A stretch of DNA of 63,369 bases, counting the filler, from Nemertoderma westbladi (lineage: Eukaryota > Animalia > Xenacoelomorpha): the NCBI GenBank assembly GCA_032718475.1. It is 3 parts of 3 records of this genome, joined end to end, with 100 filler letters (N's around TTAATTAATTAA, not from the genome) between each part and the next. Parts side by side here need not be neighbours in the genome. Positions count along the whole stretch, not along the records: positions 1 to 28,230 come from JAUCBJ010003723.1; 2 more parts are not named here. One strand, written 5' to 3'. The translations under genes and the position numbers were made by a program. This document shows, piece by piece, positions 2,483-52,764 of this stretch (the stretch's first letter is position 1; the number at the start of each line of letters is the position of its first letter). A model generated the notes under the pieces. That model ran no database searches and was not told the DNA's origin. It worked only from the letters and a program-made list of their open reading frames with translations.

Positions 2483-3059
2483 ACAACACTACCGGTACTT
2501 ACAGTTGCACAATGCAACACTACAGGTACTTACAGTTGCACAATGTAACACTACCGGTACTTACAGTTGCACAATGCAAACTACAGGTACTTACAGTTGC
2601 ACAATGTAACACTACCGGTACTTACAGTTGCACAATGTAACACTACCGGTACTTACAGTTGCACAATGCAACACTACAGGTACTTACAGTTGCACAATGC
2701 AACACTACAGGTACTTACAGTTGCACAATGTAACACTACCGGTACTTACAGTTGCACAATGCAAACTACAGGTACTTACAGTTGCACAATGTAACACTAC
2801 CGGTACTTACAGTTGCACAATGTAACACTACCGGTACTTACAGGTGCACAATGCAACACTACAGGTACTTACAGTTGCACAATGTAACACTACCGGTACT
2901 TACAGTTGCACAATGCAAACTACAGGTACTTACAGTTGCACAATGTAACACTACCGGTACTTACAGTTGTACAATGTAACACTACCGGTACTTACAGTTG
3001 CACAATGCAACACTACAGGTACTTACAGTTGCACAATGCAACACTACAGGTACTTACTG
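2483..3059. repeat. 31-bp minisatellite, about 18-19 copies
   Basis: Unit ACACTAC(C/A)GGTACTTACAGTTGCACAATG(T/C)A, with occasional 30-bp variants; it generates the repetitive ORFs at 2335-3164. Confidence 0.95.
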
Positions 3060-3380: not shown

Positions 3381-3991
3381 TAGAGTAGGAGGTAAAACCA
3401 ATATTCAATGTGTGATTAATCATGTATTATCTTATGGCATACATATGGTATTTTTATTCTTGATTACTTATGTCGGGCTTGAATTTATTTACATCGGTCT
3501 TGAACTTATTTATGTCCCTCTTGATTTATTAATATCGATTTTGAATATATTTATGCCGCACTTGATTTAATTATCTCGCTCTTGAATTATTATTGTCGCA
3601 CTTGATTTAGTTATGGCGCTCTTGAATTATTTATATCGGTCTTGATTCCCATTTACTTGGTCTTGATTCATTGGTCGAAGGAATTTCTACCATTATAATC
3701 AACCAATCAGAATCAGCTACACAGTAGTGCAGTGAGTGTACACTACACTATGCAGTGCATGGTACCGGTAACGATTTGAATTAATCACCGGAGTACAAAG
3801 GACTATGCTAACCAGTACTGCTAGCCCATTGTCAGTGAATTCTTCATTGTTTTGTATTTGGGTTAGGCCTACTGGGTTTATTGGATTTGTTATTAGGGTA
3901 ATTTAGTATTAGGTACCATTGTTGCGCTGTTTGTGACTTGTGTTTATAATAACCCTACCAGACCTATAGTTTATTTAGTTTCTTTAGTTTT

Positions 3992-4355
3992 TAGATTTTA
4001 GTGCTACATACCCCAACCCAACTACCACAAGAAAAATTGCACCAAACCATACAGTAACTACAGGTTCCGGTAAGTATTGCACGAAATTTGTTAGGGTAGG
4101 GGTGGGATTCGTGGCACACTGCTGATGAGGAGAACCACGAATCCCAGGGTTCAGTGTTTAAATCTCCGAAACCCTTTTATTTTTATAAAATTTGTTACTT
4201 AGACTTACCTTTTCGGCGGACAAAATGTCCTATATTTTTTGTAATTTATGGGATAGCCTATGTCGTGCAATACTTACCGGAACCTGTAGTTACTGTATGG
4301 TTTGGTGTAATTTTTCTTGTGGAAGTTGGGTTGGGTTATGTAGCACTAAAATCTA
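3992..4355. mobile_element. Inverted-repeat element (93-bp arms) enclosing a hammerhead ribozyme
   Basis: 3992-4084 is the near-perfect reverse complement of 4263-4355. Confidence 0.8.
4103..4175 (+). ncRNA. Hammerhead ribozyme candidate with non-circularly permuted strand order
   Basis: CUGAUGA 4122-4128; GAAA 4168-4171; stem I 4116-4121/4152-4157; stem II 4129-4133/4163-4167; stem III 4146-4150/4171-4175; GUU cleavage triplet 4149-4151; extra helix 4103-4114/4135-4146. Confidence 0.7.
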
Positions 4356-5138
4356 TTTGGTATTTTGTTTTTTGATGGGCCTTAGTGCCTGAGTACTAAC
4401 AATGGCCCAAGTGGCCCCAAATGCTAGGTAGTATCTGAGGGAATAAGACCCCATGTCCTATTTTATTGTTTTCATATTAATATTATTAAAATTGTGGATT
4501 GTTTTACTTTTTGGTGGATTTTTGTCATTATATAGGATTATATATCTTCTCTCAGTGCACCAAATTTGTTTTCTTAGGAATGCTTACCATTACGTCCATC
4601 TGCAAATTTAATCGATTGATATCCTATTACAGTGCACAGGTGCAGATTACAGGGGCACCCTCCCTCCTGGTCTTCGCCTTATCGCCTTAGAAAAAATCCT
4701 CAAGGTGAAGCACTGTCGGCACCTGATAATATTATTCTATGATAAATACAGCATTACATCCCCTGTGTCTATTGGGCATAATTAATTAATGAAATAATGT
4801 AGGACACTCACTGTCCTTCTAATAAATATTATATTTATTAAACAAAAATACGCTATAGGCAATAAGCCATCGTAATATTTTACGAAGGCCTGCTATACTG
4901 TAGGCTAAGTCACTACAGTACTTTTATAATAAGAATTTACTACTGTAGCTATCATAATAAATTCAGTATGCTCTCCCATTAGACAGGCTTGGCCTGGGAG
5001 GTAGCCATATTATATTGCACACATATACATACATACACTGGTATACCTCTATGTGAGCTTGCTTGCTATTTTGAGATCCTTCCCCCTTTTCTTACCCCCT
5101 CATCCGTGCCACCACTGGTTCAGCCAAACAACCCAGGC

Positions 5139-5770: not shown

Positions 5771-6330
5771 TCACGCCACAATCGTTCTATCAGAACTTCC
5801 TTTTATAAAAGGGTCATTAGATCGTTCATCGTTACATAAAGACCTTAGCTCCTTATGAAACTTAATCATAGTTGAGTTTTCGGTACCACAATCAGAACGC
5901 AATAGACAAGGTAGACTGCGTAAATCCTGAACATATTCAAAATACGAATTTACCACAATGTCTGGATTATTATTACTCGGTAGAACTTTCAGCCAAATTA
6001 TTTTTCGAGAAAAACCATCTACATAGCCCCATGGATGGGAAACCCATAAGGCTTCAGTTTGTCATAACCATCCACATGTAAGTAATGATTCGGACCGTTT
6101 GAGTAATAAAGAATCCGTCATCTAAGTGATTTTATGAGTCTGTAGTCGACTCCTTCGGGGTATAAGCACTTAAAGTACAACACGCATGGTTTCTTTGGGA
6201 ATGTTAATACAATGGCGGCTCCACAATCTTTGTCGCATTGCTCTATATCCACAATGGGAACCCCCAAACTCGAAGAGTTCTTTCGCTGTATTTTCAATGA
6301 TTCTTTGTAGTGATGTTTCATAATCTCGGC
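5771..6330 (-). pseudogene. Frameshifted integrase-core (DDE) transposase fragment, IS3EU-like
   Basis: Across frames: YPEGV..R, GPNHYLHVDGYDKLKPYGFPIHG, DGFSRKIIWLKV, LRSDCGTEN, FIKGSS. Confidence 0.7.
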
Positions 6331-9300
6331 TGCGCAGCCCCAATTTAGATTTGAATCGCTCTATACTGTAGTACGGGTTGAGATAGTAAGACTATGATTG
6401 GTGTTTAAAATTAGTTTAGTTTCTTTAGCCGTGTACTGCAGGTAATGATAAATTAATATTACATTTTCAGTATTTAAAATTACATTGGATAGGCTTAAGC
6501 AAGGACTATAGTCTGACTGACTCATAGCAAACACGGGAATTCTGTAATAACAGACGGGTATTTACGATACCTGTAGTAAAATACACAACACTAATCTGGT
6601 AATAAGATGATAACCTACAATAGGCCTCCACTCATAAACTCCCATACAGTACCGGTATAAACATATATTTACATACAGTACTACTGTATTTCAGTATAAT
6701 ACTGTACTTTACTTCAGTATTTGCTACAGTTAGGCTAAATTGCTGTATTGCAGTATTGTCTGATTGCTGGATTGTACACAGGGTTGGCCTACGCCCTACA
6801 TCTGGGTAAATCTTTTCGACCTACGTGTAGGCCTACGCGTAGCTACGCGTAGGCCTACGCGTAGCTACGCGTAGTTCGCAACATTGGGTCATATATCACC
6901 AGTTTCAGAGTTTTAACAATAACTACGCGTAGGTGCTACGCGTAGCTACGCGTAGGTGCTACGCGTAGCTACGCGTAGGTCCTACGCGACCTACGCATAG
7001 GTGCTACCCATAACTATGCCTATACGTATTAGTAGGCCTACGTATTCCAAGCGAGTCAGTACTAAAATAAGACATAATACGGTATGTTCAATAAACAACC
7101 CACAACCATCAAATGCTTTCAACAGTAATGTATCCTATACCTGTATACTCTATATAGAGGAATACGCGAAAACTACATATTCTTCACTTCATGCGTTGCG
7201 GGCGGTAAAATGTGTTAATAATTAATGTTTAGAGTTCAAAAATAGTTTACAAAGGAAATAGGCCGATGGTTCTTATCGATTCTCTATGCTTTTTATTGCC
7301 TTTGTTCACGATAGGGCAAGGACTGTATTTAATATGTTAACCCCTTGACAAGGGAAGGGGGAGACTAAATTGTCTACCATGATTGGTTGCACTTGTCATT
7401 TGACCAAACAATTTGATTACCCAGCAAAGTCACATCCTTCGAAATTGCTACTAATATGCTGCTAATTTGATCGAAATAAATTTTCTTCGAAATTATCAGC
7501 ATTTTCGCCGTCTAAATTGTCTGATAATTCAGTCTACAATTCGTAGGATAAATTATCCTTCTAAACGAAGGATAAATTCGAAGACTATTCGAAGATTCTG
7601 AAGATTTAGCTAGTTTTTAGCCGGCAAATAGAAGGATAAATATGCCTACTATTCGCCGGATAAATTATCCTTCTAAACGAAGGATAAATTTGTAGACTTT
7701 TCGAAGGGTGGATGAATTGATAATTTTTATCCTTCGTTTAGAAGGATAATTTATGCTGCTATTCGCCGGATAAATTATCCTTCTAAATGAAGGCTAAATT
7801 TGTAGACTTTTCGAAGGGTGGATGAACAGATTAATTTATAGTTTTTATCCTGCGTTTAGAATGATAATTTATGCTACTATTCGAAGGATAAATTACCTTA
7901 TATTCGAAGGATAAATTACCTTCTAAACGAAGGATAAATTTGTAGACTTTTCAAAGGTTGGATCATTTAGCTTAGTTTTGTTTAGTTATGCATAGTTACA
8001 GTATGTTATGTTTTATCCGGCAAATACTGAGAGTAAAATAATAATTATATACTGTAGTTATGCCTACTAATAATCCGAATATTTTTTTATCTGGGGACCA
8101 TATTTAGCAGTAAATTAGTACAAAGTTATCAGTTCTTTAGAATTGTCGATTATATAATAATATATCATCTGAAGCAAAGAAAATTGATCTATATTATGTC
8201 CAGTGCCATTTATATTGTTTTATGAAATAAATCCATTAATTACTGTGTGATGCTGTGTCTGTCCTTAAAGGTGCGGTAATCCATGTATCCAGAGTCTGCA
8301 GGTCTGAGTGTATGGCAGAGCTAGAGGTAAAGGCGATGTCCAGTCCATACTGCCCTACAGTATGTCACTGTCAGAATGTCAGACACCTGTAAAAACGAGA
8401 CTACAGTATCTGACTACAGTATGTCTTTCAGGCAGTCAGGGAAATCCTGGGGACAAACAAAGCACATATTTTTTCAGTATTAATACCTAATACGTGTACT
8501 ATATCCGAAACTGAAAGTTTTAAAAAATGTACCTTTTATACTACAGTATAACGATACAGAAACTATTTACTCTACTGCTCTATACTGTATAAAATTTATT
8601 CTTAATTAATAATTATTTTTAATCTTTTTTTTAATATACAAATTTTAATACAGTATTTAACATTTTAATATTCAGATATTTTCTTGCTATCATGCACCCC
8701 GGTCAGCCTGTACAATCAGCGCGTCGCATATCAGCACATGTACACATGTAACTAACAGTACAACATATCGTAGGGCAGTTGGAAGTTCCGTACCTGCGGA
8801 CCCGTACTGTATTTTTTCGTTGGAATACATATACTGCAGCACTGTCAGATCTCAGACTTAACACTGGACCCACGACCTCCAAGATATGTGAATTCAATGC
8901 AACCACTACACCAAGGTCTCTTTGATTAAGAAAATGAATTAAATAATTATTGAATGCTTTTAAATTTAATGTTGTAATTTAGTGTCGTAATTCAAAAACA
9001 TGATACCACCCCACCCCACCTTCCCTAACTTTTATACAAATTTTATTGAATAGCATGATATGAAACAGAGTTACAGTAGTTTCACCTCCCTCATTCGTAG
9101 TAACTGAGACAGAATTTGTATTTTTGCTTTTTATTCTTTAGCAACAAGCGTTTGAAAAAAGTGTCACCGGCGGCGATATCATCACCAGTCCCATCTCAGT
9201 TATTCAACCTTATATTAATTTGTTGGTTCTGATGGAAAGCTGACCATGCAACGATTCCAAATATGAAAAAATGGAAATTTAGAAAATACAGTTGCTGAGA

Positions 9301-11643: not shown

Positions 11644-13649
11644 TAGTGCTTGAATTTATATTGTATTTTGGTATAACAAACATTGTGTATTATTGATTTA
11701 AAATATTTCTTGTTTGGGGGACGGGGTATTGTTTGGGGGCATTACAAATTTACCAATGAGACAGAGGGGGGAGAGGTGGGGCTCGAGCTTGCGTGACATT
11801 TTGAAACAGAGCGGGGTGGGGAGGGGGGGGGGGGGTGGTCAAAAATCGGGAAAATTTGCGTGACATACAGTACTTTATGAACGCCCGCCCTAGAACGTAA
11901 CTGAGGGTTCAGATTCACTTTCCAGAAGAAAGACTTATTACTACTGTGAACAATTCGTATCTGGGAATTTAAATTCGTACTGTAACTAGGAACTGAAATT
12001 TGAAACCGGAATTTCAGATTTGTAAATCTGATGAGCATTCGCAGCATATGGTCATTTCCTTACCAGCCGAGCCGCTTGGTCCATTACTATGTAAAATATT
12101 ATCAATTCTTTATATATGGCTGATAATTGTCTTCGAAAACGAAGATAAATTATCAGGCAAATAATGCATATTTTCGTCATCAGAGAAGCATAATTATTAA
12201 TTAAATGCATCTAAATTTAATTAATTTTCATAGATCCATCAACACGAATAATCTAATATGGCTGACAATATGGGAAATTATTTAAATTTCAACTAACAAA
12301 TTCAAATTTTTCGATTATCACCTAAAGTTTCCATAGATACCCTCAAATATATATTGATTATATATTTCTCTATATACTCAGCCGCTTCCATTAATAAGTA
12401 TATACCGTATTGTAGGATAGGGTAAGTAGGGTGTAGGGTAGGATACGGTAGGCTACTACAGTAGGTATAGGCTAATACCCCCTCCCTCTTCACCAAAGCA
12501 TCCACAGGCAGGTCCAGTGATTGGACTTGTTTCAGTTACATTTTTTTTTCTTCGAAAAATAGTATTTTTTATGCTTCGAAAATGCTTCTAATAATGTATG
12601 AAATTATCCTTCGAAAATGCTTCGTAAACTTCTAATTGAAGGCTAATAGTCTACTAAACGAAGCATTTTTATCTTCGAAATCATCCTTCGAAAAATGCTA
12701 AATAAACTTCTAATCGCAGGCGAATAGTCTACTAAACGAAGCATTTTTGTCTTCGAATTATCCTTCGAATATGCTTCGTAAACTACTAATCGAAGGCTAA
12801 TAGTCTACTAAACGATGGATATTTCTCTTCGAAATCCACCCTTCGAAACCTTTAAGAACATTGGAACCAAAAAGCCGGCTTTTATCCGGCGAAATTAGCA
12901 GGGTATTAGCCGGCGAAATTAGTAGCAATTTATCAGCGACTTATCATGCTATGACTTTGCTGGGTATATGCAGTATTTATCAGCTTTCGCTTAACCTCTT
13001 CACCGGTAGACTGGTCGCTTTATTTACTACTGTTCAATATTTAAATAATCCAAAGGAAACAAGGATACTTGAATCATGAGACGTGAATTTTAAGTTTACT
13101 TTTTATTCATCCTCTGTGTTTGTATGTGAAAGAGCCGAATATTATTTATTACCAGTGCTATATGTAGAGATATGAGTTTCCGATTCTGTTATTACATTTG
13201 TCTGATAATCAGATACCTGACATATACCGATACTTGCCTAACAACTCAACCCTACCGGACCTGAAATGAAAAATCATTGTTATCAGGACTGCTACGCGTA
13301 GCACCTACGCGTAGTTTCACAATACCTACGCGTAGTTCCAAAATAACTACGCGTAGTTTTAAAACACCTACGCGTAGTTGTTAAAAAGGCAGTAAGTCTG
13401 TAAGTCTGGCCCTACCGGTAAATGACAGGAATGGAAGTTACAAACTACGCGTAGCTACGCGTAAGCCTACGCGTAGGTCGAAAAGATTTACCCCTACATC
13501 AGTACATCTTACAGTCTTACATAGAACAGCTCCGACCGGCAGAAAATGCAGCATACTGCTGCTGTGCTGTACTGCAATAACTACCGGTAGCCCAATCTGT
13601 CAGTCTGTACCGGTACGATACCACACTGTCATTGTTTCAGAAAACGAGA

Positions 13650-13961
13650 ATGATCAATATCCAAGATGCTCAGGGCGACAGAAGTTTTATAGGCCGTATA
13701 ATAGATCCCATGAAGAAGGCTGGACTAGTTCTGCTATCGATTGCCGCTGTGTTGAATTTCATTTTAATTGGATGGTACATCGTGTGGCGCTTATTTCTCT
13801 CCAAGTTTAAATTTATCCGAGAGTTGTTTGGTGTTGAAGAACCGGCAAACACAAAAACTATTTCGTATAGGCCTAAAGAATGCGCTGAGGAAATTATTCA
13901 GGATTCTTTACATGGCGACAAAACATCACGAAATTCAACGGTTAGAAAGAGAACATCGTAG
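13650..13961 (+). CDS. SMIM13: Small integral membrane protein 13-like
   Basis: Single TM helix followed by GWYIVWRLFLSKFKFIRELFG, the SMIM13 signature; first ATG at 13650. Confidence 0.85.
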   Translation: MINIQDAQGDRSFIGRIIDPMKKAGLVLLSIAAVLNFILIGWYIVWRLFLSKFKFIRELFGVEEPANTKTISYRPKECAEEIIQDSLHGDKTSRNSTVRKRTS

Positions 13962-14631
13962 CTATCTCCAGATCTCTGTATCAGGCAGTCTGGTTGGGCC
14001 TCTTACCGGTAGACCGGCTGACCGGTAAGCCTAACAGTAAATTGTTGTGTTGAGGATGCGTATAAAAAGACCCAGGGCTGCCAATCTGCAGATCTGTGAC
14101 TCCTGCGCGAATAATTGTATTTCTGGATGTAGTGGGGTAGGCCTAGTCAATACTGCAATACTCAGGCACTCAGGGTTGTTTTGGTTACAGCTACGGCAGT
14201 AGGTACGCCGGTACGGACAGTATATCATCTCTGCTGACGTGCGACTGAATGCACAGCACATCTACGTTTCCGGTATTAAAATAAATTAATATTATTATGT
14301 TCGAGTTATGTTGGGGAAAACACGTACCGGTAAATAGAACAAATACTTTGGGCCTATTTATCATGGGACCATTTCGTGTAGTGAGTGACACATTCATTCA
14401 GTGATATAAAGAATATTGAAGTATATATTCTGCGATTGACATAAGTTAATTATTTGGATTAATATATGTAGTGACCGAATTATTTTAAACTCGCTTCATA
14501 CTACAGTACTATACTGTCTTATACAGTATACGTTGTGTCTGTGATGTGTAATACCATAGTGAGTACTTTATAACCCATATTACTTTCTTTCGTTAGTTGA
14601 CTAGTAGTGAGCGAAGACTACAATTTTATTG

Positions 14632-15683
14632 GGGTAAATCTTTTCGACCTACGCGTAGGCCTACGCGTAGCTACGCGTAGCTACGCGTAGCTACGCGTAG
14701 TTCGCAACATTGGGTCATATATCACCAGTTTCAGAGTTTTAACAATAACTACGCGTAGGTGCTACGCGTAGCTACGCGTAGGTGCTACGCGTAGCTACGC
14801 GTAGGTCCTACGCGACCTACGCATAGGTGCTACCCATAACTATGCCTATACGTCGTTTATCATTAGTAGGCTTACGTATTCCAAGCGAGTAAGTACTAAA
14901 ATAAGACACAATACGGTATGTTCAATAAACAACCCACAACCATCAAATGCTTTCAACAGTAATGTATCCTATACCTGTATACTCTATATAGAGGAATACG
15001 CGAAAACTACATAATTCTTCACTTCATGCGTTGCGGGCGGTAAAATGTGTTAATAATTAATGTTTAGAGTTCAAAAATAGTTTACAAAGGAAATAGGCCG
15101 ATGGTTCTTATCGATTCTCTATGCTTTTTATTGCCTTTGTTCACGATAGGGCAACTAGGATATACTGTTTTTAATATGTTAACCCCTTGACAAGGGAAGG
15201 GGGAGACTAAATTGTCTATCATGAGACGTGAATTTTAAGTTTACTTTTTATTCATCCTCTGTGTTTGTATGTGAAAGAGCCGAATATTATTTATTACCAG
15301 TGCTGTATGTAGAGATATGAGTTTCCGATTCTGATATTACATTTGTCTGATAATCAGATACCTGACATGTACCGATACTTGCCTAACAACTCAACCCTAC
15401 CGGACCTGAAATGAAAAATCATTGTTATCAGGACTGCTACGCGTAGCACCTACGCGTAGCTACGCGTAGCACCTACGCGTAGTTTCAAAATACCTACGCG
15501 TAGTTCCAAAATAACTACGCGTAGTTTTAAAACACCTACGCGTAGTTGTAAAAAAGGCAGTAAGTCTGGCCCTACCGGTAAATGACAGGAATGGAAGTTA
15601 CAAACTACGCGTAGCTACGCGTAGCTACGCGTAGCTACGCGTAGCTACGCGTAGGCCTACGCGTAGGTCGAAAAGATTTACCC
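14632..15683. mobile_element. MITE family A, uninterrupted copy 2 (1052 bp; Merlin/MuDR-like by GG termini and 8-bp TSD)
   Basis: Perfect TIRs; perfect TSD TTTTATTG at 14624-14631 and 15684-15691. Confidence 0.92.
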
Positions 15684-17860: not shown

Positions 17861-18827
17861 GAATAAATAAATAAAGAATACAATTTGTTATTTAACAATT
17901 ATTATTAAATACAGGTGAATAAATAAATAAAGAATACAATTTGTTATTTAACAATTATTATTAAATACAGGTGAATAAATAAATAAAGAATACAATTTGT
18001 TATTTAACAATTATTATTAAATACAGGTGAATAAATAAATAAAGAATACAATTTGTTATTTAACAATTATTATTAATACAGGTGAATAAATAAATAAAGA
18101 ATACAATTTGTTATTTAACAATTATTATTAAATACAGGTGAATAAATAAATAAAGAATACAATTTGTTATTTAACAATTATTATTAAATACAGGTGAATA
18201 AATAAATAAAGAATACAATTTGTTATTTAACAATTATTATTAAATACAGGTGAATAAATAAATAAAGAATACAATTTGTTATTTAACAATTATTATTAAA
18301 TACAGGTGAATAAATAAATAAAGAATACAATTTGTTATTTAACAATTATTATTAAATACAGGTGAATAAATAAATAAAGAATACAATTTGTTATTTAACA
18401 ATTATTATTAAATACAGGTGAATAAATAAATAAAGAATACAATTTGTTATTTAACAATTATTATTAAATACAGGTGAATAAATAAATAAAGAATACAATT
18501 TGTTATTTAACAATTATTATTAAATACAGGTGAATAAATAAATAAAGAATACAATTTGTTATTTAACAATTATTATTAAATACAGGTGAATAAATAAATA
18601 AAGAATACAATTTGTTATTTAACAATTATTATTAAATACAGGTGAATAAATAAATAAAGAATACAATTTGTTATTTAACAATTATTATTAAATACAGGTG
18701 AATAAATAAATAAAGAATACAATTTGTTATTTAACAATTATTATTAAATACAGGTGAATAAATAAATAAAGAATACAATTTGTTATTTAACAATTATTAT
18801 TAAATACAGGTGAATAAATAAATAAAT
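17861..18827. repeat. 56-bp AT-rich minisatellite, about 17 near-identical copies
   Basis: Unit GAATAAATAAATAAAGAATACAATTTGTTATTTAACAATTATTATTAAATACAGGT; one 55-bp unit. Confidence 0.97.
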
Positions 18828-19919: not shown

Positions 19920-22401
19920 CAAGGACTGCTATACTACAGGACTGGCACACTGAATATCCAGACCCCGCTAGCGGGGTCCATTAGTTCCCTTCTAATATGG
20001 CTCCGAAATAGATGCAAATTTGTTAAATTTTAAATTTTCTCTCACAGATAAATTGTTATTTATTCTTCTTATGACGAACCTAGCTACCTCAAACCTGCCT
20101 CGCTTCCTGCTTTAACGTTTGAGGCTGATATAATTATTGCTAAGCCAGTGATAGTCCATATACCATAATACTGTATGGTAGTAATCGTGCTCGTGCACTA
20201 TGCATAATAAATTCAGACACCACCGGCACCGCCCACTACTCTCGCCACCAGCCCAGCCCAATACATTAATTAAACATCTTAGTGGGGCGAGCCACGTAGT
20301 GGTTGAAGCTTTACCGTACAGATTTCATAATGTTGACATTCTTGTGATCTGCAATTTAAGATTATAAATTTTAACACGCAAAATGAATATTAAATAACGA
20401 TTAGAAAATTTATTTATTTCCAGCAGCTGCTATTGCAATCTGCAATGGTTTTCATATGTATAAATTGCCGGCAGTGTAGGTAGACCTACTCGATTCAAAA
20501 TAACAACAGCAATTGGCCCTTAAAAGGGGCATTTGGGTTGAGTTGTATTACAGTATGTGACATGTGTCTGTAGGCATATTGAATTATCAAAATTAATTAC
20601 AATTAAATTAATAGATAGTCGAATAGTCAATCTTCACTACAGAAGATTAATGTCCTTTATCCAGACCGGCAATGCGGAGAAATTTCCTGTTGGTTCCGTG
20701 ACCTTCGGAAGATCGCTTTTCAGAGCACATCATGCCTTATTCACCATCACCTTTATCCTCTATTTCGTCACGAAATAGATTGTTTGAGCAATTGTTGGCC
20801 CGGACGTTGTCATTAACCAAAGCAACAATTTCACCGCCATGTTTGTGGAAAGAGGTAATTGCTTCCTTGATACACGTATGGGCAAATAGGGCTGTCATGG
20901 AATGAACTGGAATCATCTGAACCATCACTGAAGGTCCCCCGTATAAAATCTTAACCATCGAGCAGAGGACTGAGTTGGCCAACTCCGATGGGTCATCCTT
21001 AGCGTAGCCAAACACTCCATGTCCTTGATACAATAGTTTGGGAACCACCTTTACTTCGTCCGTTATAAGAATCGCCTTTGGGGATTCGGCAGCAGGCCTA
21101 CCAGCTGGTAAGCTGTTCTTTGCTTTACGAATAGCCGTTTCTATGAGCAAATCACTGGTGACTCCCTGTTTTAGCGATCTTATCTTCCTTTCGCATGGAA
21201 GAATAGCAATCTGCCGCAGTATACTATATGGCAGACGCGGGTAGCCCTGAACAGCCAGTAGATAATCCGACTGTGAGTAACACTTCGAACCGCTACAATG
21301 CAGCTGCAACTGATGGGATATAAACTCCAGCTGGGTTTTGTATTTACAATCAGAGCTGGAGGCGATAGCGTCATCAATCAACTCTCGGGCTTTCAGCAGC
21401 AAGTTCTCGGTCGTTCCTACCACGCTTCGTTTAACTGCGACAATAACCTCCAACAGCTGGGACCAGCGAATGAGCTGCGCGTTAGGAGCGAGGCAATAGT
21501 TGAGCGATATACGTTTGTTAGTAGGATTAAATGCAGTAACATAGATATCACTGCAGAGAAGCTGCCTCGTTTCAATACATATTTTGCCAGCGTAGGAATC
21601 GCTGACAAAAACATACAGCATAATGAAATCAGCAGTTATCTTAACAAATATATCGACGGACTCAACACGAACATCGTTGCGAATCCACGTTTCGACATCG
21701 TCACGGAAGATATCGAACCCGCCAATTACATCCCGGCGGTTTAGCGATTGAACCTGTCGCTCTTCGATCGGTGGCTCCGCTCGTAACTTCCCTGGTGGCG
21801 GAGGAACACAGGATGCTGGAACCCCAGGAAAGAAGAATGGCGGGATAGTCGGCCGCAACGCTCCTCCCGGAACCTTCCGATGAGGGATATCCTGCGGGAA
21901 TCCTGGCCAATGTCGTATACAAATAACAGCATCGGCGCTATACTTTATGGGCGATCCATCAGGAGCAGACGGCTTTGGAAGAGCAGCAATCCATTGCTGA
22001 CGTTCCACGCCGAATGGGAGCTTGACAGTTCGTACAGTTCTTCCCTCGTAGTTGCCATCGCATCCATACACACAACAGTGTTTCCCCATTCCAGTTTATA
22101 ACCCGAATAATCTGATATTACTGTAATGTGTGTTAAAACTACCGTAGCTACCGGTACTAAGCTGCAGCCTGTCAGCCTGTAGTTATGTTAAACCTTTTTA
22201 AACATTACTAAATAATAAATATTAAATACATAAATATAAATCAACTGATTTAAAAAAGTACATAAGTAATTGGGTTTATTACTGGATTACACAGTTGTAC
22301 AGCCAGACAGCAGTACTGGAATTCTGCAACTAATGGACCCCGCTTGCCGCTAGCGGGGTCTGGATATTCAGTGTGCCAGTCCTGTAGTATAGCAGTCCTT
22401 G
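19920..22401 (-). mobile_element. P-element-superfamily DNA transposon (2482 bp), probably internally deleted
   Basis: TIRs of about 55-65 bp beginning CAAGGACTGCTATACTACAGG; perfect 8-bp TSD GTCCTGGT (19912-19919, 22402-22409); encloses a THAP-transposase ORF. Confidence 0.93.
20737..22089 (-). CDS. THAP-domain P-element transposase (THAP9-like), C-terminally truncated
   Basis: N-terminal THAP finger (CCVYGC...LP...W...CIRHW...PT); RNase H-like acidic motifs ITDEVKV and VNDNVRAN; ORF stops at 450 aa. Confidence 0.85.
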   Translation of the reverse strand: MGKHCCVYGCDGNYEGRTVRTVKLPFGVERQQWIAALPKPSAPDGSPIKYSADAVICIRHWPGFPQDIPHRKVPGGALRPTIPPFFFPGVPASCVPPPPGKLRAEPPIEERQVQSLNRRDVIGGFDIFRDDVETWIRNDVRVESVDIFVKITADFIMLYVFVSDSYAGKICIETRQLLCSDIYVTAFNPTNKRISLNYCLAPNAQLIRWSQLLEVIVAVKRSVVGTTENLLLKARELIDDAIASSSDCKYKTQLEFISHQLQLHCSGSKCYSQSDYLLAVQGYPRLPYSILRQIAILPCERKIRSLKQGVTSDLLIETAIRKAKNSLPAGRPAAESPKAILITDEVKVVPKLLYQGHGVFGYAKDDPSELANSVLCSMVKILYGGPSVMVQMIPVHSMTALFAHTCIKEAITSFHKHGGEIVALVNDNVRANNCSNNLFRDEIEDKGDGE

Positions 22402-22650: not shown

Positions 22651-23061
22651 CTGGAAATAAGTCGTCAGACTTTGTGCGTAATCCCTGGCCTAGCGGCCGA
22701 AGAAAATTTACTTTTACTTTTTTTTTGTATTCTAGAAGTCCATGCAGCCATGGTCAGATGGTCTGATATAGGACTACCGGTTGCTATCTGCGTACTGCTG
22801 TACTGGCGTAGGCCTATTGAAAATTGTACAGGTAGGCTAGGGCTAGGCCCCCTATACCCTAGGTACCGGTAATTCATAATTAATACAGTAGGCCTAATAT
22901 AATTCATATTTCATAAATAAAGAGAATGGCAGAATGGCTTGATAATGATAACGTGATTTGATAACTCTGTAACTGGATGAGCTGTGCTTGTGAGCAGGTG
23001 AGTGGAGTTGTAAGTTGACAAGTTGATTGCTGCCGCTACCTTCTGACTGCCTGACCTCATC

Positions 23062-24339
23062 ATGGAATTGGAACCTGCTGTCCCAGCAGGTACTCTTCGT
23101 TATAGCATATTCGGCGATAAATCAAACGAGTTCTATAAGGATCCTCTAAGTTTTGTTCAATCTCGAACAGCGCTTTACGGAAGGTCAATATTCCTAGAAA
23201 GATTCCTAACCAAACCAACTGTCTTCATTACCGATTACGCATCGGTGAAGGAACTTCTTATTGATAAATCAAGATCATTTTCTTTCGGTTACAAACAGTT
23301 TCTAAGTCATGTTTACGAGGATAACATTGTATTTACGAATGGAGATGTTGCCTCAGAAATTCGTGGTAGCATGAAGGGTTTATTCGATGCAGATAAAATA
23401 GCATCTTATCATGAAAAACATATCCAACCAATTATAAACAAGTTGTTAAGAAACGCAACTTACCTCAATGAAACTCCAGCTTATACTAGTATGAAGTACC
23501 TTTCTACAAACATTTGTCTCGCGACTTTTTTAGGACTTGACGAAAACAGCCGCAATAACGACAATACGAGTGCAATAAACGAGGTCTCGAAACTAGCTAC
23601 CACTCATTGGCACGGTATCATATCCGTCCCCGTCAACCTGAAACTACCGTTTACCGGAATCAGTAATTGGTACGCAAAAAGCGTCGAGGCAAGGAAATCT
23701 TTGTCGGAAATCGCCGCGGCGAAAATTAAAAGTGCAAATAAGGAAAGTTGCCCATTTCTTGCGAGTTTGCGTGATAAGGTAGGAAGTCAATCAGCTGTTC
23801 AGCACAGTTTGCTGTTTATTTCGTCTCTTATACCGAAAGCTTTAGCTTCTATTCTTACATCATTCCTCGTTGTAACTTCTCAGAATATGGAACTGCAAGT
23901 TCGATGTCTGGATAACCCAAATCTTATAAACTGTGTGATTAAGGAAGTTTGTCGGATGTGGCCGCCTTTTGTAGGAGGTAGACGTATAGCCTTAGAGGAC
24001 GTAACCCTTGGTGGTTACCTAGTTACTAAGGGTCAGCCGGTTGTTTACGTTTCGCACCGGGCGCATAGAGACCGCTCTGTATTCCGGGATCCAGACACGT
24101 TTATCCCGGAGCGATGGCTGGACGACAGCGCCGATATATTTACCTTCGGGTTGGGAGAGAGATCGTGTTTAGGGTTCGATTTGGTGGAGTTTGTTTTGGT
24201 TTCGGTTTTGACACAGTTACTCCAGTTGTACACATGGCGGCCTGTCTGCGACGACTTCGATGGCAACGTCGTCTATAAATGGCTCCCAATTTCTCGACCG
24301 AAAAATGATTTTCTTCTTAAATTTACTTCTAGAGAATAA
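23062..24339 (+). CDS. Cytochrome P450, intronless, CYP26/CYP120-like (possibly CYP16-type)
   Basis: ExxR (KEVCRMWPP), PERF (FIPERW) and haem motif FGLGERSCLG; 425 aa; CATCATGG start context. Confidence 0.93.
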   Translation: MELEPAVPAGTLRYSIFGDKSNEFYKDPLSFVQSRTALYGRSIFLERFLTKPTVFITDYASVKELLIDKSRSFSFGYKQFLSHVYEDNIVFTNGDVASEIRGSMKGLFDADKIASYHEKHIQPIINKLLRNATYLNETPAYTSMKYLSTNICLATFLGLDENSRNNDNTSAINEVSKLATTHWHGIISVPVNLKLPFTGISNWYAKSVEARKSLSEIAAAKIKSANKESCPFLASLRDKVGSQSAVQHSLLFISSLIPKALASILTSFLVVTSQNMELQVRCLDNPNLINCVIKEVCRMWPPFVGGRRIALEDVTLGGYLVTKGQPVVYVSHRAHRDRSVFRDPDTFIPERWLDDSADIFTFGLGERSCLGFDLVEFVLVSVLTQLLQLYTWRPVCDDFDGNVVYKWLPISRPKNDFLLKFTSRE

Positions 24340-28977: not shown

Positions 28978-30243
28978 TTATTCATTAACGTAGTGACAGA
29001 AACATAAGCAAATCAAGGCGATTACAAACGGCAGTCCAATAAGACTAAGTATCGAGGATGCAACTTGGAACCCTATGAGATCATTTATTAGACCCCCAAA
29101 CGCTGCCCCCACTATGTAACCAACAGAGTAAGATATTCTAAGTCCCTGTTGTAGGACAGCACGTGTATCTACGTTGTCTGCGTAACCGCAGATGTTCACG
29201 GCCAGTCGAGCTTGTGAATCAAATGCCGGAACAAAAAAGATTCCAGCACCGGTTCCAAGTAACGACATTCCAATAAGAGAAATAGTTAAGGAATATGGAA
29301 TACCGAGGGTTTCAGTTGGCCCTATTAGGTGCATGGATGCTGACATTAATATTATTCCTATTATAGTTGGGTAAACTGTAGTCAATCTATTCAGCAAAAC
29401 GGTGAACAACAAGCTAATAGAGCTTTGGAGTACAGGATAAATCATAAAATAGAGACCTATGTTGTATTGTGTTGCATGGTAGTAGCTATGGACGTAAGCC
29501 GCATAGTTAGCCATAATAAAATAATTCATAATGGATCCAAATAATTCCAGAATATATATAACTGTAATTCCTGGGTTCCTGAGTATACCAATATATGTTG
29601 GCCGATCTTCCGAGTTTGCGCATCTATCGTGGAGATGGTCAGGTGCCTCGAACCAAATGTAAAGAACGATTATGAGAAACATCAAACCAGAAATTACAAA
29701 AGGATATTCAAACCCCAACGCCACATAAACGGCTGAACCGAACATTGGCGAAAGGGTATACCCCAGGGAACCAAATATAAGAATTATACCACTTAAAAAA
29801 CTTCTATGGTTTGGCATCAACTCCACCAATAAATTGTAGGAATACGTATAACTTATGTTGAGACCTATGCCTTCAATTATTCGAAGCAAAAAACACGCGA
29901 AAATATACAACCCAAACTCATTTATGGCTATATATTCCACAAATCCAAATGCCAATTGCGAGATTGATCCTATAACTCCGAACACTCCCATAGAAATTCT
30001 GGTCCCCCAGTTACTAATGGCATGTGGGCAAACAATATAGATCAACAGTCTGACTAGAGCGAAGGCGGAGAGTAGAGCGCCAATCATTGTGTTAGACCAC
30101 CCCCGTTGTTGGACGACAATAGGAAAGAACGACTCCATTAGATTGGTACACCAACCCGGGATTAATTGGAAAGCTATAAGGAAACCAACCAACGAGAAGA
30201 ATCTCCATCCTCGTACAACAATCTCGGTCTCATTTGTTGTCAT
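28978..30243 (-). CDS. SLC18B1: MFS transporter, SLC18B1-like, intronless
   Basis: 421 aa with about 12 hydrophobic segments; SFFP, LRIIEGIG, GYTLSPMFGSAVY..LGFEYPF and G.IVGAAFGG motifs. The MFS call is firm; the subfamily is less certain. Confidence 0.8.
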   Translation of the reverse strand: MTTNETEIVVRGWRFFSLVGFLIAFQLIPGWCTNLMESFFPIVVQQRGWSNTMIGALLSAFALVRLLIYIVCPHAISNWGTRISMGVFGVIGSISQLAFGFVEYIAINEFGLYIFACFLLRIIEGIGLNISYTYSYNLLVELMPNHRSFLSGIILIFGSLGYTLSPMFGSAVYVALGFEYPFVISGLMFLIIVLYIWFEAPDHLHDRCANSEDRPTYIGILRNPGITVIYILELFGSIMNYFIMANYAAYVHSYYHATQYNIGLYFMIYPVLQSSISLLFTVLLNRLTTVYPTIIGIILMSASMHLIGPTETLGIPYSLTISLIGMSLLGTGAGIFFVPAFDSQARLAVNICGYADNVDTRAVLQQGLRISYSVGYIVGAAFGGLINDLIGFQVASSILSLIGLPFVIALICLCFCHYVNE

Positions 30244-31294
30244 TATTTAATTAAATTATTATATATATATATACTGTTTACCAATTTTTCAATAAATTGA
30301 CTATGTTGGTGTTTCTCAAGTAATACGCGCAAAATTGATACGTACAACAGTATCTTGGAATACAAATCACTGATATATATAGAGCAAAAATAGAATACAA
30401 TTATAAATATAATATTAATATATATTAGAAAGTTGAATACAAGCTATTTATTTCAGTAATATTTAGGCAATTAATATTAATAGTTTGCAATATTAACAAA
30501 CTAACTCAATAAAGAATTGGTTCAATTCGAAGAATTAGAACGAAACTAAAACATGTGTTCTGCGCCATAAAAACGTCAACTACTGTACCAATATATAAAA
30601 GAGAGAGGTACCCGCCTGTTTCTTGGTTCATCAATATCAGGAAGAGGTACCGCTTGCTGTTTCTTGGTTTTAATTCGTTCCAGTTGGAACTTGGCAGCCC
30701 CCCAAAAGGTAATGCTAGCAATTAATAGGAAAATATTCAACTGTTTTTACAGTTTACAACCCCCCCCCCCCCCCCCCCCCCCTCCCACCCCCTCCAACGA
30801 ATATTGTTCAAATCTGCTAAACCTTGTCGTTCCCCCAAAGTTAATTATGGCGTGACGACAAACAAACAGACCATATTTTATTTCGCAAATAAATATCCAA
30901 TTAATATTAATATAATATTTATTTAAATTTTTATAATCCGACTCACTTATATAATAATATATACTACTCGCTCACATAAGCGCAAACCAGACTATCTGGC
31001 ATTTATTGTTAAAAATTGTAACAATTATACGATTATGGGTTAAATAAACTATTATAAAATCATAGTAAAACTATCAAGATCACTATCACTACTAAATTAT
31101 TGAATAAAAATAGAAGTCATTAGTTGTCGAAAATAAAGCTTATAAATGGCACCAGTAAATTATACAATCAATGTGGGATACGGTTAGTATAGTATAAGGG
31201 ACGACACGTTATATATAAACATTAATTAAAATAGTTATCGCGACATATATATATATGTATACTGTTCGAATTAACACCAGTTACGAGTATTCGA

Positions 31295-34000
31295 TTATGT
31301 TTTAAAAGTTACTCCATGCAGATCATAGCTGTTCTTTACGAAATTAGCACAAATTATGTCGTTAAGTGAGTTATTATTGTTGCCAGTTTGAAATCCTGTC
31401 ATAAGTGCAAGTTTGTCATATTCACATGTTAGTATTGACCACGTAAAAGGGATTTGGTACGTTTCCTTTGCTCGTCTGTAGGTGCTCATAAGGCCCCTGT
31501 ATAACGTACGGGATGTCGCGTTATCCAAAGCGATATATCGGAAACTAGTTTGTAGGGTGAATATAGGGCATCTAAGTATTTGCAATGATGTTGAAACGGC
31601 GCTACGATAGGCCATGGTGCTAAGAGGCAACATGTTCAGGAGCTCGTATAATGTGTCGTTGTTCATATAGACTCCAACGTGCAGAAGTCGGCGTAGAGCC
31701 TGTCTAGGCTGAATCAATACGAGATATGTCATTCTTGCTCAGGCTACCGATCGTGTACTTTAGCTTGTATGTCAAGCTTGGGATAACAAGTGACTTCCAG
31801 AGATATGATAATGTTTCGGTATCTAACCATTGCGATGTACACCCCTTTTGTTGAAAAATTCCTCCCAATTTCCATATGTGATGAGTGCACTCTGCGGCGG
31901 CGTGTGCGCTGGTTTTGTTGGATGAAAGAGTGTAGCCCAGGAACTCGATTGTCTGACTTTCTGCTATTAGCTGTCCATTAATACTGAGGAAACACGGTAT
32001 GTAAGTGTTAGTGTTAACTTCGCTGTACATCCAGTGACATTTAGAGTTTCAGACAGTTTAGACATTCAATTTCCTATTTAGTAGTATGGCTAAAAGAAAT
32101 ACATCGTCAGCATACATTATGCAGCCAAATCAGATATCGTTGATCATGCACCCCAGTCCGGATTCAGTTAGTGGCTGCATGACGCTGATGGTATAAAAAT
32201 TAAATAAACAGGGTGACAGTAATGATCCTTGCATGATCCCTCTGGGCATATTTATGCCAACCGTGTCAATCCGATTACCAAACTTTAGGTACACCATGGC
32301 GATGCTGTAGTAGTGAACCAGTAGATGGCCTCGCATCCCACTTGTTCTTCGGAAGGACATTCTCAAGGAAACCCTTGTATATTATACGCTAGAGTACCTT
32401 TGCTAATAGACATATGCTAGCAATCGGTCTATAAGAGTTAGTTCTCATGGGATCCTTCCTCTTCCCTTTGTATAAACTTGTTGTGATAGTTGCTCCAAAA
32501 ACATCCGGTACCATGCCGATACGTATACATGCATTATACATAGTTTCTAAGAGGTGACTAGTGTTGAGAACTGTAACTATAATTATACTGTAACTGAAAC
32601 TGAATGATTTTCATAATTTTAATTAAATTAGGAAAAATTGATTCAATTCTCAACACTAGGTGACCATAGTCTCGGGGTTGGCAGATAAAAGGTGCTCCAC
32701 TGTTATAGAATTGAGGTCCGGCGACTCCCTACCGATAAAGATAATATAGATTTCCTTATAGTTTCTTCAGATATGGTAGGTACGGTATGGTATGGTAATA
32801 TTCTTGCAAAATTATCGGTGATGTTGGTAGTGCCAGTAACGTTTCTTGTAATTCAGTCCCTATATGACTGACGTATTTGATCCTGAATCTGAGTTGGCGG
32901 TGTGCTTGGAATACAATTGTTTGAAAATTTTCGCCAGAAACCCTTTGGGTTTCTCTTCAGCTTGTGTGTTACTTCACTGACTGATAATCCTATAATTTTT
33001 AGTTATCCTTTTCTTTTTGATTACATTAATAGTTTCAAGTGCTGATTTGTGTAATGCAGAGTTAATGTTGTTGGCAAGAGTATTGAGGTCGTCCATGGTG
33101 TCGATAGCGATTGATGCCATCCACTCAGATAATTTTCTAAGGTTCGACAAGAACTGGTCTTTCTGCTTTTTTGATGCGCTTCTCCAATTAAATCGTGTAG
33201 GCGTCTGTTTTATAGCAGTTTTTCCCGCAAACTCTTCCTTTACAGCATCACAGTTGATTGAAATCACGATTGGTAAATGATCAGAAAAGTTATCTGCTTC
33301 ATCGTATGATGTATCCCCTTATGACTTTAAATGGTCCGTTGATTGGCATCACAATGTGGTCGATATAATTCCGATGACCACCCCCAATATAGGATATGCT
33401 GGTCCTGTCACATCGTCAAGTGTGTCTATAGCTGTAACATTGTAGTTTAGTAGGAAATTGTTCAGAATTAGGCCGCGATCTGTTGCATTGAGTCTATGAA
33501 ATCATGGTCCTTGTTCTGACCCTAAGTCCGCGTTAGCATCCATGATAATAATAGGGATTGCCACTGGGTACATAGTGATTAAAGCAGTAAGCCGACCAAG
33601 GTACTCATTATAACTTTGAATGTTTTTGTTAGAGTCTGGTGCATAGCCTGAAAGTAGAACTCGAACATTGCCAGTGTCACCGATTATTCCAACAATGTCG
33701 TCCCCAGTAACGACTTTGGCCCAGTTACATACTTTATCTTTCCGGAACGCCAAAGCTACCGCTACCCCTCCAGCACCTCCAACCCTATTAGGGTTGTTCA
33801 TTAGATCGCTAGAAGAGTAGACGAGCTCCAAGTTTTCATTGAAGCTCTATAGCATCCATCCAGTGCTCCTGAATTCCAATGACATCGCATACTTCAAGCA
33901 GTTTGTCTATCTGATCGATGCTACTCGAGTACCCATGGCAGTTATAAGATCCTAAGGTAAGTTTTGCTTTAAGAGATTTATAATCCGTGCTGTCAGTACC
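31295..34000 (-). pseudogene. Degenerate non-LTR retrotransposon (APE endonuclease + reverse transcriptase)
   Basis: LGSYNCHG, IGIQEHW, MDANA and SDHLPI (APE); QGSLLSPCLFNFY, MYADD at about 32104-32118 and FLGY (RT); many stops and frameshifts. Confidence 0.9.
32559..32658. mobile_element. 100-bp mini-MITE inserted in the LINE
   Basis: TAGTGTTGAGAA / TTCTCAACACTA termini flanked by the direct repeat GGTGAC. Confidence 0.6.
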
Positions 34001-36063: not shown

Positions 36064-36459
<396 letters not shown>

Positions 36460-36647: not shown

Positions 36648-36823
36648 CCTTCCATGACGAGTTGATGGGCCCGAGCTATAAGTTGCACGCCGTTGCTATG
36701 GTTGAACGTTTCCGATATATCCATGCCGAATGTGTAGCCGGCACCGCGGGGAGAAATACCCCAGCCGCCGCGGTCGTCTGGGTCGGACCACAGCAGATCG
36801 CACATCGGCCCTTCGTGTGGCAC
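36648..36823 (-). CDS. PPP2CA: PP2A catalytic subunit, exon 3
   Basis: [17 protein letters not shown]...RAHQLVMEG; TTTAG acceptor; GTTAGT donor in phase 2, matching exon 4. Confidence 0.97.
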
Positions 36824-38248
36824 CTAAACAAACAAAGGAACGTTACAGACAAACAAACATCGGCCCTTCGTGTGGCACCTAAACAAACAACGGAACGTTA
36901 CAGCCCAACAACCATCGGCCCTTCGTGTGGCACCTAAACAAACAAAGCAACGTTACAGACAAACAAACAACGGAACGTTACAGACCAACAAACATCGACC
37001 CTACGTGTGGCACCTAAACAAACAACGGAACGTTACAGCCCAACAAACATCGACCCTTCGTATGGCACGTAAACAGGCAACGGAACGTTACAGCCCAACA
37101 AACATCGGCCCTTCGTGTAGCACCTAAAGAGGCAACGGAACGTTACAGACCAACAAACATCGGCCCTTCGTGTGGCACCTAAACAAACAACGAAATGTTA
37201 CAGACCAACAAACATCGGCCCTTCGTGTGGCACCTAAACAAACAACGAAATGTTACAGACCAACAAACATCGGCCCTTCGTGTGGCACCTAAACAAACAA
37301 CGGAACGTAACAGACCAACAAATATCGGCCCTTCGTGTGGCACCTAAACAAACAACGGAACGTTACAGACCAACAAACATCGGCCCTTCGTGTAGCACCT
37401 AAACAGGCAACGGAACGTTACAGCCCAACAAACATCGGCCGTTCGTGTGGCACCTAAACAAACAAAGGAACGTTACAGACCAACAAACATCGGCCCTTCG
37501 TGTGGCACCTAAACAAACAACGGAACGTTACAGCCCAACAAACATCGGCCCTTCGTATGGCACCTAAACAGGCAACGGAACGTTACAGCCCAACAAACAT
37601 CGGCCCTTCTTGTGGCACCTAAACAAACAAAGGAACGTTACAGACCAACAAACATCGGCCCTTCGTGTGGCACCTAAACAAACAACGGAACGTTACAGCC
37701 CAACAAACATCGGCCGTTCGTGTGGCACCTAAACAAACAAAGGAACGTTACAGACCAACAAACATCGGCCCTTCGTGTGGCACCTAAACAAACAACGGAA
37801 CGTTACAGACCAACAAACATCGGCCCTTCGTGTGGCACCTAAACAAACAACGGAACGTTACAGCCCAACAAACATCGGCCCTTCGTATGGCACCTAAACA
37901 GGCAACGGAACGTTACAGCCCAACAAACATCGGCCCTTCTTGTGGCACCTAAACAATCTAAGGAACGTTACAGCCCAACAAACATCGGCCCTTCGTATGG
38001 CACCTAAACAAACAACGGAACGTTACAGCCCAACAAACATCGGCCCTTCGTGTGGCACCTAAACAAACAACGGAACGTTACAGCCCAACAAACATCGGCC
38101 CTTCGTCTGGCACCTAAACAAACAACGAAACGTTACAGACCAACAAACATCGGCCCTTCGTGTGGCACCTAAACAAACAACGGAACGTTACAGACCAACA
38201 AACATCGGCCCTTCGTGTGGCCCCTAAACAAACAACAATACGTTACAG
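36802..38248 (-). repeat. 55-bp minisatellite (about 26 copies) spanning the exon 3 acceptor
   Basis: Unit = 33 nt of intron ending TTGTTTGTTTAG + first 22 nt of exon 3 (GTGCCACACGAAGGGCCGATGT). Confidence 0.96.
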
Positions 38249-39757: not shown

Positions 39758-40077
39758 TCATAATATACCGGTAAATTAAAATATTTTTGTATTCATATTC
39801 CATACCGAACCCCATACCGTACCTGCATTATATTACTACTGTACTACGGTGTAATATGGAACATTACAGGTACTTAGTGTTAGGTTTTATGGTACTTTTA
39901 AGTTATTATTGCGGCCTAGTCAACAAACCCAAAATTCAAAGAAAAGACTAGTGGTATGAAATTACCCAGCAAAACAAAATAATTGGCCCGACTGTAAGAA
40001 GCCTTTTTCAAGGTACCGGTACTGTAACTAAGACAACTTATTTTCGGTATTAATGAAATATAAAGTAATTAACTCAC

Positions 40078-40437
40078 CTTTAATGTAATTAAAAGTGACA
40101 CCGATTCTACTGAATAGTAACCTCTATCAACATAATCACCCATAAACAGATAATTAGTATCAGGTGATCGGCCTCCTATCTTAAACAGCTCCATAAGATC
40201 GTGGAACTGCCCATGGACATCTCCACAAACTGTTACAGGACATTTAACTTCCTGTACATTTGATTCCTTTGCGAGAATCTCCTTAGCTTTATCACAAAGA
40301 GTCTTAACTTGCGCTTCGCCTAACTGTTTACATTCAATCAACTGTTCTATCCAGCCTTCCAACTCCTTCATTCCGCTGACATCAATCGGCTGTTTTGAAG
40401 GTGTCGCATCTCCAACCGAGGTTGTTGTAGTAGCCAT
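40078..40437 (-). CDS. PPP2CA: PP2A catalytic subunit, exon 1
   Basis: [10 protein letters not shown] and GDYVDRG motifs; AAG|GTGAGT donor; the four exons sum to 978 nt (325 aa plus stop). Confidence 0.97.
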
Positions 40438-52497: not shown

Positions 52498-52764
52498 ATG
52501 TTGATGTTCACAATTTTCAATTGGTTTTGGAATGAGGAGTTTTGGTTGCCACCAGGGAAAGTGTGGAAAGATTTGGAAACAAATTCAGACGATCCGGAAG
52601 GAACTTACTTCCCTAAGTCGGTCCATCTTCTCTACTCTCTACCGGTCGCCTTTATATTTCTATCTGTAAAGCCGATATTCCGAAATTATGTCGGGAAAAT
52701 AGTAGCTCCAGTAATAAATGGAAATAATAAAAAGAAATCTGGGTCAAACCAGACCAATGGATAC
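52498..52764 (+). CDS. CERS: Ceramide synthase, exon 1
   Basis: WFWNEEFWLPPG..W.DL N-terminal signature of CerS2-6; TAC|GTAAGT donor, phase 0. Confidence 0.88.

Follow-up and report, generated by a model that had tools for sequence, protein, structure and literature searches.

A hammerhead ribozyme motif whose strands stand in a non-circular order lies at positions 4103–4175 of a 63,369-nucleotide stretch of DNA from the xenacoelomorph Nemertoderma westbladi (GenBank assembly GCA_032718475.1), the whole of which, three joined parts of the genome, is referred to here as the window. Taken together, the analysis makes it probable that this is a complete hammerhead of type CSG, predicted to cut after U4151, with 332 nt left to the 3' end of its carrier, a high-copy repeat that has no open reading frame (ORF), was likely copied in the manner of Penelope elements and probably belongs with the Naiads. 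The topology is not new: the RNA conforms in all testable features to type CSG, which is known but very rare and whose real precedent comes from soil DNA. New are its place within a retro-element of an animal and its agreement with the Naiads of nematodes.

The hammerhead motif and its block order

Eckert, Friedrich, Weinberg and Weinberg (2023; PMC10085705) divided the hammerhead into three blocks, C, S and G, so that types I, II and III read CGS, GSC and SCG; here and below, statements on cited papers and data files refer to the portions of them drawn on. Type CSG was described from five sequences, two of them unique, in soil DNA, and the two RNAs tested, CSG-1 and CSG-2, each cleave where predicted, with rates of 0.004 and 0.026 per min, although the evidence for this type was rated by its authors as weaker than that for type SGC (PMC10085705). 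The corresponding parts in the N. westbladi copy are as follows.

4103–4175 (+): type-CSG hammerhead motif, block order C, S, G (helix script, scan of all block orders, layout compared by eye with CSG-1 and CSG-2)
4103–4114 (+): 5' strand of the clamp helix P0, which corresponds to the stem I–II interaction helix of type CSG and closes hairpin A with its 20-nt loop
4116–4133 (+): block C, with the stem I 5' strand (4116–4121), CUGAUGA, C3 to A9 (4122–4128), and the stem II 5' strand (4129–4133)
4135–4146 (+): 3' strand of P0, entering stem III without a spacer, A4146 being common to both
4146–4157 (+): block S, with the stem III 5' strand (4146–4149), U16.1 (4150), U17 (4151) and the stem I 3' strand (4152–4157)
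between 4151 and 4152 (+): predicted cut, by analogy with the mapped cuts of CSG-1 and CSG-2
4158–4162 (+): UUAAA linker between the tips of stems I and II, read from the sequence, the same in CSG-2 and with one change in CSG-1
4163–4175 (+): block G, with the stem II 3' strand (4163–4167), GAAA, G12 to A15.1 (4168–4171), and the stem III 3' strand (4172–4175)

All four helices consist of Watson-Crick pairs throughout according to a helix script: the clamp has 12 bp (4103–4114/4135–4146), stem I 6 bp (4116–4121/4152–4157), stem II 5 bp (4129–4133/4163–4167) and stem III 4 bp (4146–4149/4172–4175), the last extended by U4150–A4171 and closing hairpin B with a 22-nt loop. The core is intact, including CUGANGA, GAAA, U16.1, H17 and the pair G10.1–C11.1 (at 4122–4129, 4167–4171 and 4150–4151), and the cleavage triplet is GUU (4149–4151). 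A single C precedes stem I and a single A follows stem II. The clamp has a pair probability of about 1.0 for 11 of its 12 pairs and a stacking energy of -25.5 kcal/mol; because A4146 belongs to both helices, the 12-bp clamp and the 4-bp stem III are never both complete. The coordinates, sequences, core and perfect helices given in an earlier sequence-only reading of the window were reproduced exactly when the script was run on them.

The motif is not a chance occurrence. Across 25.3 Mb of shuffled sequence (200 dinucleotide shuffles, both strands), a CSG descriptor matched loosely once and never with equal strictness, strict meaning stems of 6, 5 and 4 bp; by structure the motif is almost certainly a CSG hammerhead. 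A scan of all six block orders found CSG alone, bearing out the earlier proposal of a non-circular order, and no hammerhead elsewhere in the window, where CUGANGA followed by GAAA occurs five times against 2.3 expected, never with stems. Types I, II and III, the circular orders that form a three-way junction without a pseudoknot, were accordingly rejected. A search of the window against Rfam with E values up to 10 returned no hammerhead and six weak matches, none to a ribozyme; this silence is expected, since the Rfam hammerhead models cover types I–III. CSG stems were present in 0 of 379 database loci matching the core letters only (viral sets of 17, 70, 101 and 83, 66 metagenomic and 42 from prokaryote genomes), a figure that shows no absence of CSG because the patterns were narrow and did not retrieve even the published soil contigs.

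The copy agrees with CSG-1 and CSG-2 in the order C, S, G, in a 5' clamp helix enclosing block C, in a stem I of 6 bp, a stem II of 5–6 bp and a stem III of 4–5 bp, in the 5-nt linker and in the 49 nt that precede the cut in each. It differs from them in the sequence of every stem, in the clamp (11–12 bp against 8 bp), in the spacer between clamp and stem III (none against 2 nt) and in the setting, a high-copy animal repeat as opposed to soil DNA contigs given without context. The clamp had been taken for an extra helix, whereas it is the stem I–II helix already drawn for type CSG (PMC10085705). A precedent in Xenopus, also named in the sequence-only reading, could not be traced: the word occurs 0 times in the portions of Eckert et al. 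(2023) drawn on, and no paper was found that joins it to 'rearranged hammerhead'. The descriptor of Eckert et al., CUGAUGAG with no more than 10 nt separating stem II from stem III (PMC10085705), would miss this copy, in which that distance is 12 nt. The other permuted kind, type SGC (HRIMA-1 and variants), has the order S, G, C and is represented by 583 sequences from metatranscriptome contigs (PMC10085705).

In its position near the end of a short, repeated, ORF-less animal retro-element, the motif resembles the type I hammerheads of Penelope pseudo-long-terminal-repeats (pLTRs) and of non-LTR retrozymes (PMC4209133; bioRxiv 10.64898/2026.07.22.740005), and it shares with them a likely role in RNA processing. 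Those hammerheads are of type I (C, G, S), often minimal and dimeric, with retrozymes forming tandem arrays, unlike the CSG order, full stems and single dispersed copy found here. A non-LTR retrozyme was considered and rejected, given a lone copy in the window, no tandem array at the locus and an order other than type I. Within its main text, the 2026 retrozyme preprint covers type I only (bioRxiv 10.64898/2026.07.22.740005; supplements not covered), and PMC13725137, in the portion drawn on, merely cites the 2023 CSG paper. No literature tying permuted hammerheads to retrotransposons or animal genomes was found in a search that left subscription papers and preprint supplements outside its range.

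The carrier repeat

Contigs of four sequencing runs (X1–X4) were placed on 3400–5000 and on 4070–4200. The runs represent three samples at most, X1 and X2 being one sample, and one of them may be the source of the window itself. The following parts of the carrier were delimited.

4087–4483 (+): direct copy of a high-copy dispersed repeat, no ORF (depth profile; loose contig ends in four of four runs)
3992–4087 (-): inverted duplicate of 4260–4355, abutting the 5' end of the direct copy (self-comparison and fold)
4474–4483 (+): 3' end of the copy, which is the main 3' end of the family, in AT-rich DNA (loose ends at 4482–4483, with unlike flanks in X2 and X3)

The repeat is about 400 bp long, and the summed depth over approximately 4090–4480 reaches 10^4–10^5 in X1–X3, climbing towards the 3' end, against about 13–35 in long contigs of the right flank. 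Single exact contigs of 59–65 nt that span the predicted cut have depths of 5800 (X2) and 4638 (X3), or 165–365 times those of flanking contigs; the depth in X4 is lower (367). The repeat is likely present in hundreds of copies in the genome, a wording kept this loose because contig depth is no copy number. Since the contigs at depths 5800 and 4638 match with 0 differences, GUU is the letter of the family and not of this copy alone, and no variants were listed among the contigs of the runs in 4070–4200 at a 1% setting. In 4194–4483, by comparison, about nine positions set this copy apart from the population, a weak contrast.

Many contigs depart at 4482–4483 into unlike flanks, and in all four runs some extend past 4485 into an optional tail, a single shared word that has 30–34 letters in X2–X4. 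At the other end, other copies share at least 14–20 further bases 5' of 4087, where their sequence is unlike that of this copy. Besides 3992–4087, four inversion joints in other copies are seen among the contig joints listed. An adjacent inverted, 5'-truncated copy and an optional tail of 30–40 bp are described as marks of Penelope elements (PMC8557442; PMC11167929). The carrier is very probably of Penelope type, as the sequence-only reading had proposed and as the inverted 5' pieces and the optional tail support, and we lean towards its being a Naiad in particular. That reading had also given the element inverted arms of 93 bp; arms are indeed present (3992–4087/4260–4355), but they measure 96 nt with four mismatches and are a property of this single insertion and not of the family. 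The inverted piece is internal and stops short of the element's 3' end. Terminal inverted repeats, as in a miniature inverted-repeat transposable element, were therefore rejected, the arms being internal and confined to this copy while the element continues to 4483. At three of the four mismatches (4262, 4308 and 4323) the inverted arm holds the population letter and the direct copy does not, so the two parts may stem from different RNA molecules. The 3' junction is AT-rich without a (TA)n tract, and a search for a target-site duplication found only 5-base AT-rich matches. No Pfam match was obtained in the two frames of the repeat that were tested.

G+C-rich hairpins are predicted at 4378–4449, near the 3' end of the element, and might serve as a protein-binding signal or as a start signal for reverse transcription. 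Twister-like words at 4390–4445 and boxes for RNA polymerase III (Pol III) were weighed by eye against consensus sequences and dropped. In X4, 102 of 121 differing places on 3400–5000 are A>G or T>C, as compared with 11 of 42 in X1 and 18 of 53 in X3, and they fall mostly in contigs over a repeat to the left of the element (3543–3989). The pattern looks like A-to-I hyper-editing, with strain differences as an alternative and the run guessed to be of DNA; if it is such editing, X4 would hold RNA or retro-copied edited RNA.

Nematode Naiads and the predicted cleavage

Craig et al. (2021; PMC8557442) reported no canonical hammerhead in Naiads, but eight 'half cores' with halves 35–50 nt apart, and the core halves of the present copy are 39 nt apart. 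In File S5 of the same paper, a CSG hammerhead could be read by eye in the 3' untranslated region (UTR) of eight of the eight nematode Naiad consensus sequences.

3' UTR of nematode Naiads: Ppac (name by file order), Parc, Nbra-1, Nbra-2, Nbra-3, Hcon, Hpol and Asuum (by eye)

Their order is clamp, stem I, CUGANGA, stem II, clamp, stem III, UH, stem I, a linker of 2–5 nt, stem II, GAAA and stem III. Three of the eight carry the published label 'HHR_half_core', one 'HHR_core' and four none (PMC8557442). Stems I (5–6 bp) and II (4–5 bp) vary among them with pairing kept, and across eleven sequences, namely this copy, the two from soil and the eight Naiads, the stems differ yet pair, as judged by eye with no statistic attached. 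The two Pristionchus motifs agree with the present one in the lone C ahead of stem I and the lone A behind stem II, and Naiad_Hpol shares the GUU site. In Naiad_Ppac and Naiad_Parc an 11-bp clamp adjoins an 11-bp stem III, and as here no spacer stands between the two helices. The carrier is further like Naiads in its inverted 5'-truncated pieces, its optional tail of 30–40 bp and its AT-rich insertion (PMC8557442), and unlike them in lacking both an ORF and, among 24 window frames scanned, an autonomous partner. The CSG motif is likely the cutting RNA that nematode Naiads were said to lack, to judge from sequence. An independent origin had been suggested for the N. westbladi motif; the layout is instead common to CSG-1, CSG-2 and the nematode Naiads, down to single-base spacers and linker length, so that common ancestry is no less likely than a separate origin.

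The RNA would first fold into two adjacent hairpins, A and B. Hairpin A would be formed by the clamp of 11–12 bp, with CUGAUGA and a single strand from each of stems I and II in its 20-nt loop, and hairpin B by stem III, with the cut site, the partner strands of stems I and II, the linker and GAAA in its 22-nt loop. Pairing between the loops, over 6 bp in stem I and 5 bp in stem II, would then build an ordinary hammerhead core in which the clamp and the linker hold the tips of the two stems together, a task that usually falls to a loop-loop contact; in all eleven examples stems I and II are short and of fixed length, in keeping with such a loop-to-loop constraint. The predicted site after U4151 follows by analogy from the mapped cuts of CSG-1 and CSG-2, and measurable cleavage of the motif RNA is likely. 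Cleavage would trim tandem transcripts, or those that read through, to unit length, the function suggested for the type I hammerheads of other Penelope-like elements. Since this copy spans the cut site, its template would have been uncut or re-joined RNA. In an Anolis Penelope element, uncut RNA is the dominant template and hammerhead mutants are still inserted in vitro (Frangieh et al., 2024; PMC11167929). Cutting may in addition be held back by a sequence just upstream.

4093–4102 (+): possible decoy, with AGGGU (4093–4097), an exact repeat of 4146–4150, and GGGG (4099–4102), which can pair with the strands of block G into an inactive fold

With the decoy strand and the GUU site, cutting would stay slow or depend on conditions. 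At least nine distinct 5' junctions were read by eye from the contigs, at 4111, 4112 (perhaps divergence), 4120, 4145, 4148, about 4149, 4152, 4156 and 4157. Six of these nine fall at 4145–4157, within 6–7 nt of the cut, and one exactly at 4152; the clustering has a nominal P of 0.001 for a range chosen afterwards. As a trace of cutting, the junctions are a hint only.

Several observations weigh against the reading of a cutting CSG ribozyme in a Naiad-like carrier. Eight of the nine junctions listed lie off the cut, high-depth contigs pass through it with no consistent step in depth at 4152, and stalling of the reverse transcriptase at the clamp (4146) explains the junctions equally well. The minimum-energy nested fold, computed with the 5' flank by a program that is blind to pseudoknots, is the decoy. 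Stem III has only 4 bp and shares A4146 with the clamp, and the site is GUU where both tested CSG RNAs have GUC (PMC10085705); together with the decoy fold, these features may slow cutting. At the rate of change seen downstream, 0 differences in the 73-nt motif have a probability of about 0.08–0.17, so its conservation may reflect youth alone. No Penelope ORF, with an N-terminal GIY-YIG endonuclease, a CxC motif and a reverse transcriptase, was found in the 24 window frames scanned, and the identity of the carrier is consequently drawn from structure alone. As for the Naiads, no CSG motif was seen in the 3' ends of two and in scattered passages of others among the 46 remaining ones. Several non-nematode Naiads (File S5 parts 8, 10–12, 17, 19 and 24) have GAAA upstream of CUGANGA with paired flanks; because their GAAA blocks come first, the Naiad clade apparently includes two or more kinds of rewired hammerhead. 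Finally, the host of the present copy is probably not a nematode. The cytochrome P450 encoded in the window has about 40% identity to proteins of many animal phyla, with no nematode among the named matches; two further searches at strict cut-offs yielded no match. In a quick tree of 74 rows, from which 8 of 81 proteins were dropped by length, the P450 is a long branch without a clear place among its animal relatives.

The alternative that survives best, though it is unlikely, keeps a real CSG hammerhead but has it act chiefly in pairs, hairpin A of one RNA or tandem copy working with hairpin B of another. Where clamp and stem III meet without a spacer, as here and in Naiad_Ppac and Naiad_Parc, the two helices would tend to stack end to end, with their loops pointing apart; such short links were noted by Eckert et al. 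as hard to fit to the crystal structure (PMC10085705), and animal Penelope-like type I hammerheads have been proposed to work as dimers (PMC4209133). Against this, the clamp of 11–12 bp is about as long as the stack of stem II, core and stem III, estimated at 12–13 layers, so that a single molecule could fold back on itself. In most of the other Naiad examples there are spacers or the clamp is longer, and no head-to-tail joint of the repeat is present among the joints listed, contigs being prone to break in repeats.

Still less probable is a real ribozyme in a carrier that does not derive from Penelope, that is, a derivative resembling a short interspersed nuclear element or one of a restriction-like-endonuclease long interspersed nuclear element (LINE), with the inversion produced by twin priming or fold-back. 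This would suit the lack of a Penelope ORF in the frames scanned, the U-rich run at 4175–4184 directly 3' of the ribozyme and the A-box-like word just before 4087 with which other copies begin. But a reading of the repeat by eye found no convincing B box or poly(A) tail, a clear target-site duplication is likewise wanting, the 30–34-nt optional tail and recurrent inverted 5' pieces fit the description of Penelope, and the CSG layout is carried by Naiads themselves, as read by eye in the nematode consensus sequences (PMC8557442). A relic ribozyme that no longer cuts, held in the decoy fold and spread by a recent burst of copying, is very improbable: the nested fold of lowest energy, the GUU site, the short stem III, the high-depth contigs across the cut and the Anolis precedent of an uncut chief template (PMC11167929) would suit it, but every core base and all 26–27 pairs are intact, the stacking sums of the active stems (I -10.7, II -10.2, III -8.7) outweigh those of the decoy (-10.9, -6.9) with loops left uncounted, and GUU is among the active NUH sites (PMC3138052).

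Setting in the window and meaning of the finding

The rest of the window contains host genes and further repeats. Long open frames of host genes lie at 23047–24339, 28978–30246, 55590–56348, 13581–13961 and 40069–40455, and their products include a cytochrome P450, an MFS transporter, a TLC-domain protein and a DUF4750 protein (Pfam). Among the host genes there is also a putative PP2A-like exon; downstream of it, a frame at 36064–36459 (-) has a likewise putative PP2A-like C-terminus behind an unrelated start. Remains of other mobile elements occupy 5774–6061, 20737–22095, 31295–33846, 48061–49383 and 60099–60566, with an integrase core, a THAP transposase and DUF3504 recognized by Pfam and LINE-like and transposase-like frames seen by eye without a Pfam match. 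Several minisatellites of 31, 56, 55, 27 and 28 bp and a dispersed family of palindromic CTACGCGTAG micro-repeats are located at 2484–3057, 17861–18826, 36802–38248, 50640–52228 and 52745–53760, and at 6820–7007 and 13303–15666.

In the published portions drawn on, type CSG has so far consisted of two similar soil sequences with no biological role stated. With this copy and the eight Naiad consensus sequences it would have eleven members with diverse stems, as well as a host and a likely function. A wider claim is put forward tentatively, as falling slightly short of an even call: that CSG is a working class of hammerhead in animal Naiads, conserved in nematodes and present in at least one distant lineage; that the soil examples are pieces of animal retroelements; that Naiads, instead of lacking hammerheads, carry rewired ones; and that the CSG form folds from two hairpins, loop to loop, with a decoy strand and an optional dimer mode by which the element turns cutting on and off. 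Naiads dominate many invertebrate genomes, and the finding would overturn the published view that they spread with no hammerhead (PMC8557442). It also makes testable the use of hammerheads by Penelope-like elements, as well as the origin and folding of non-circular RNA permutations.
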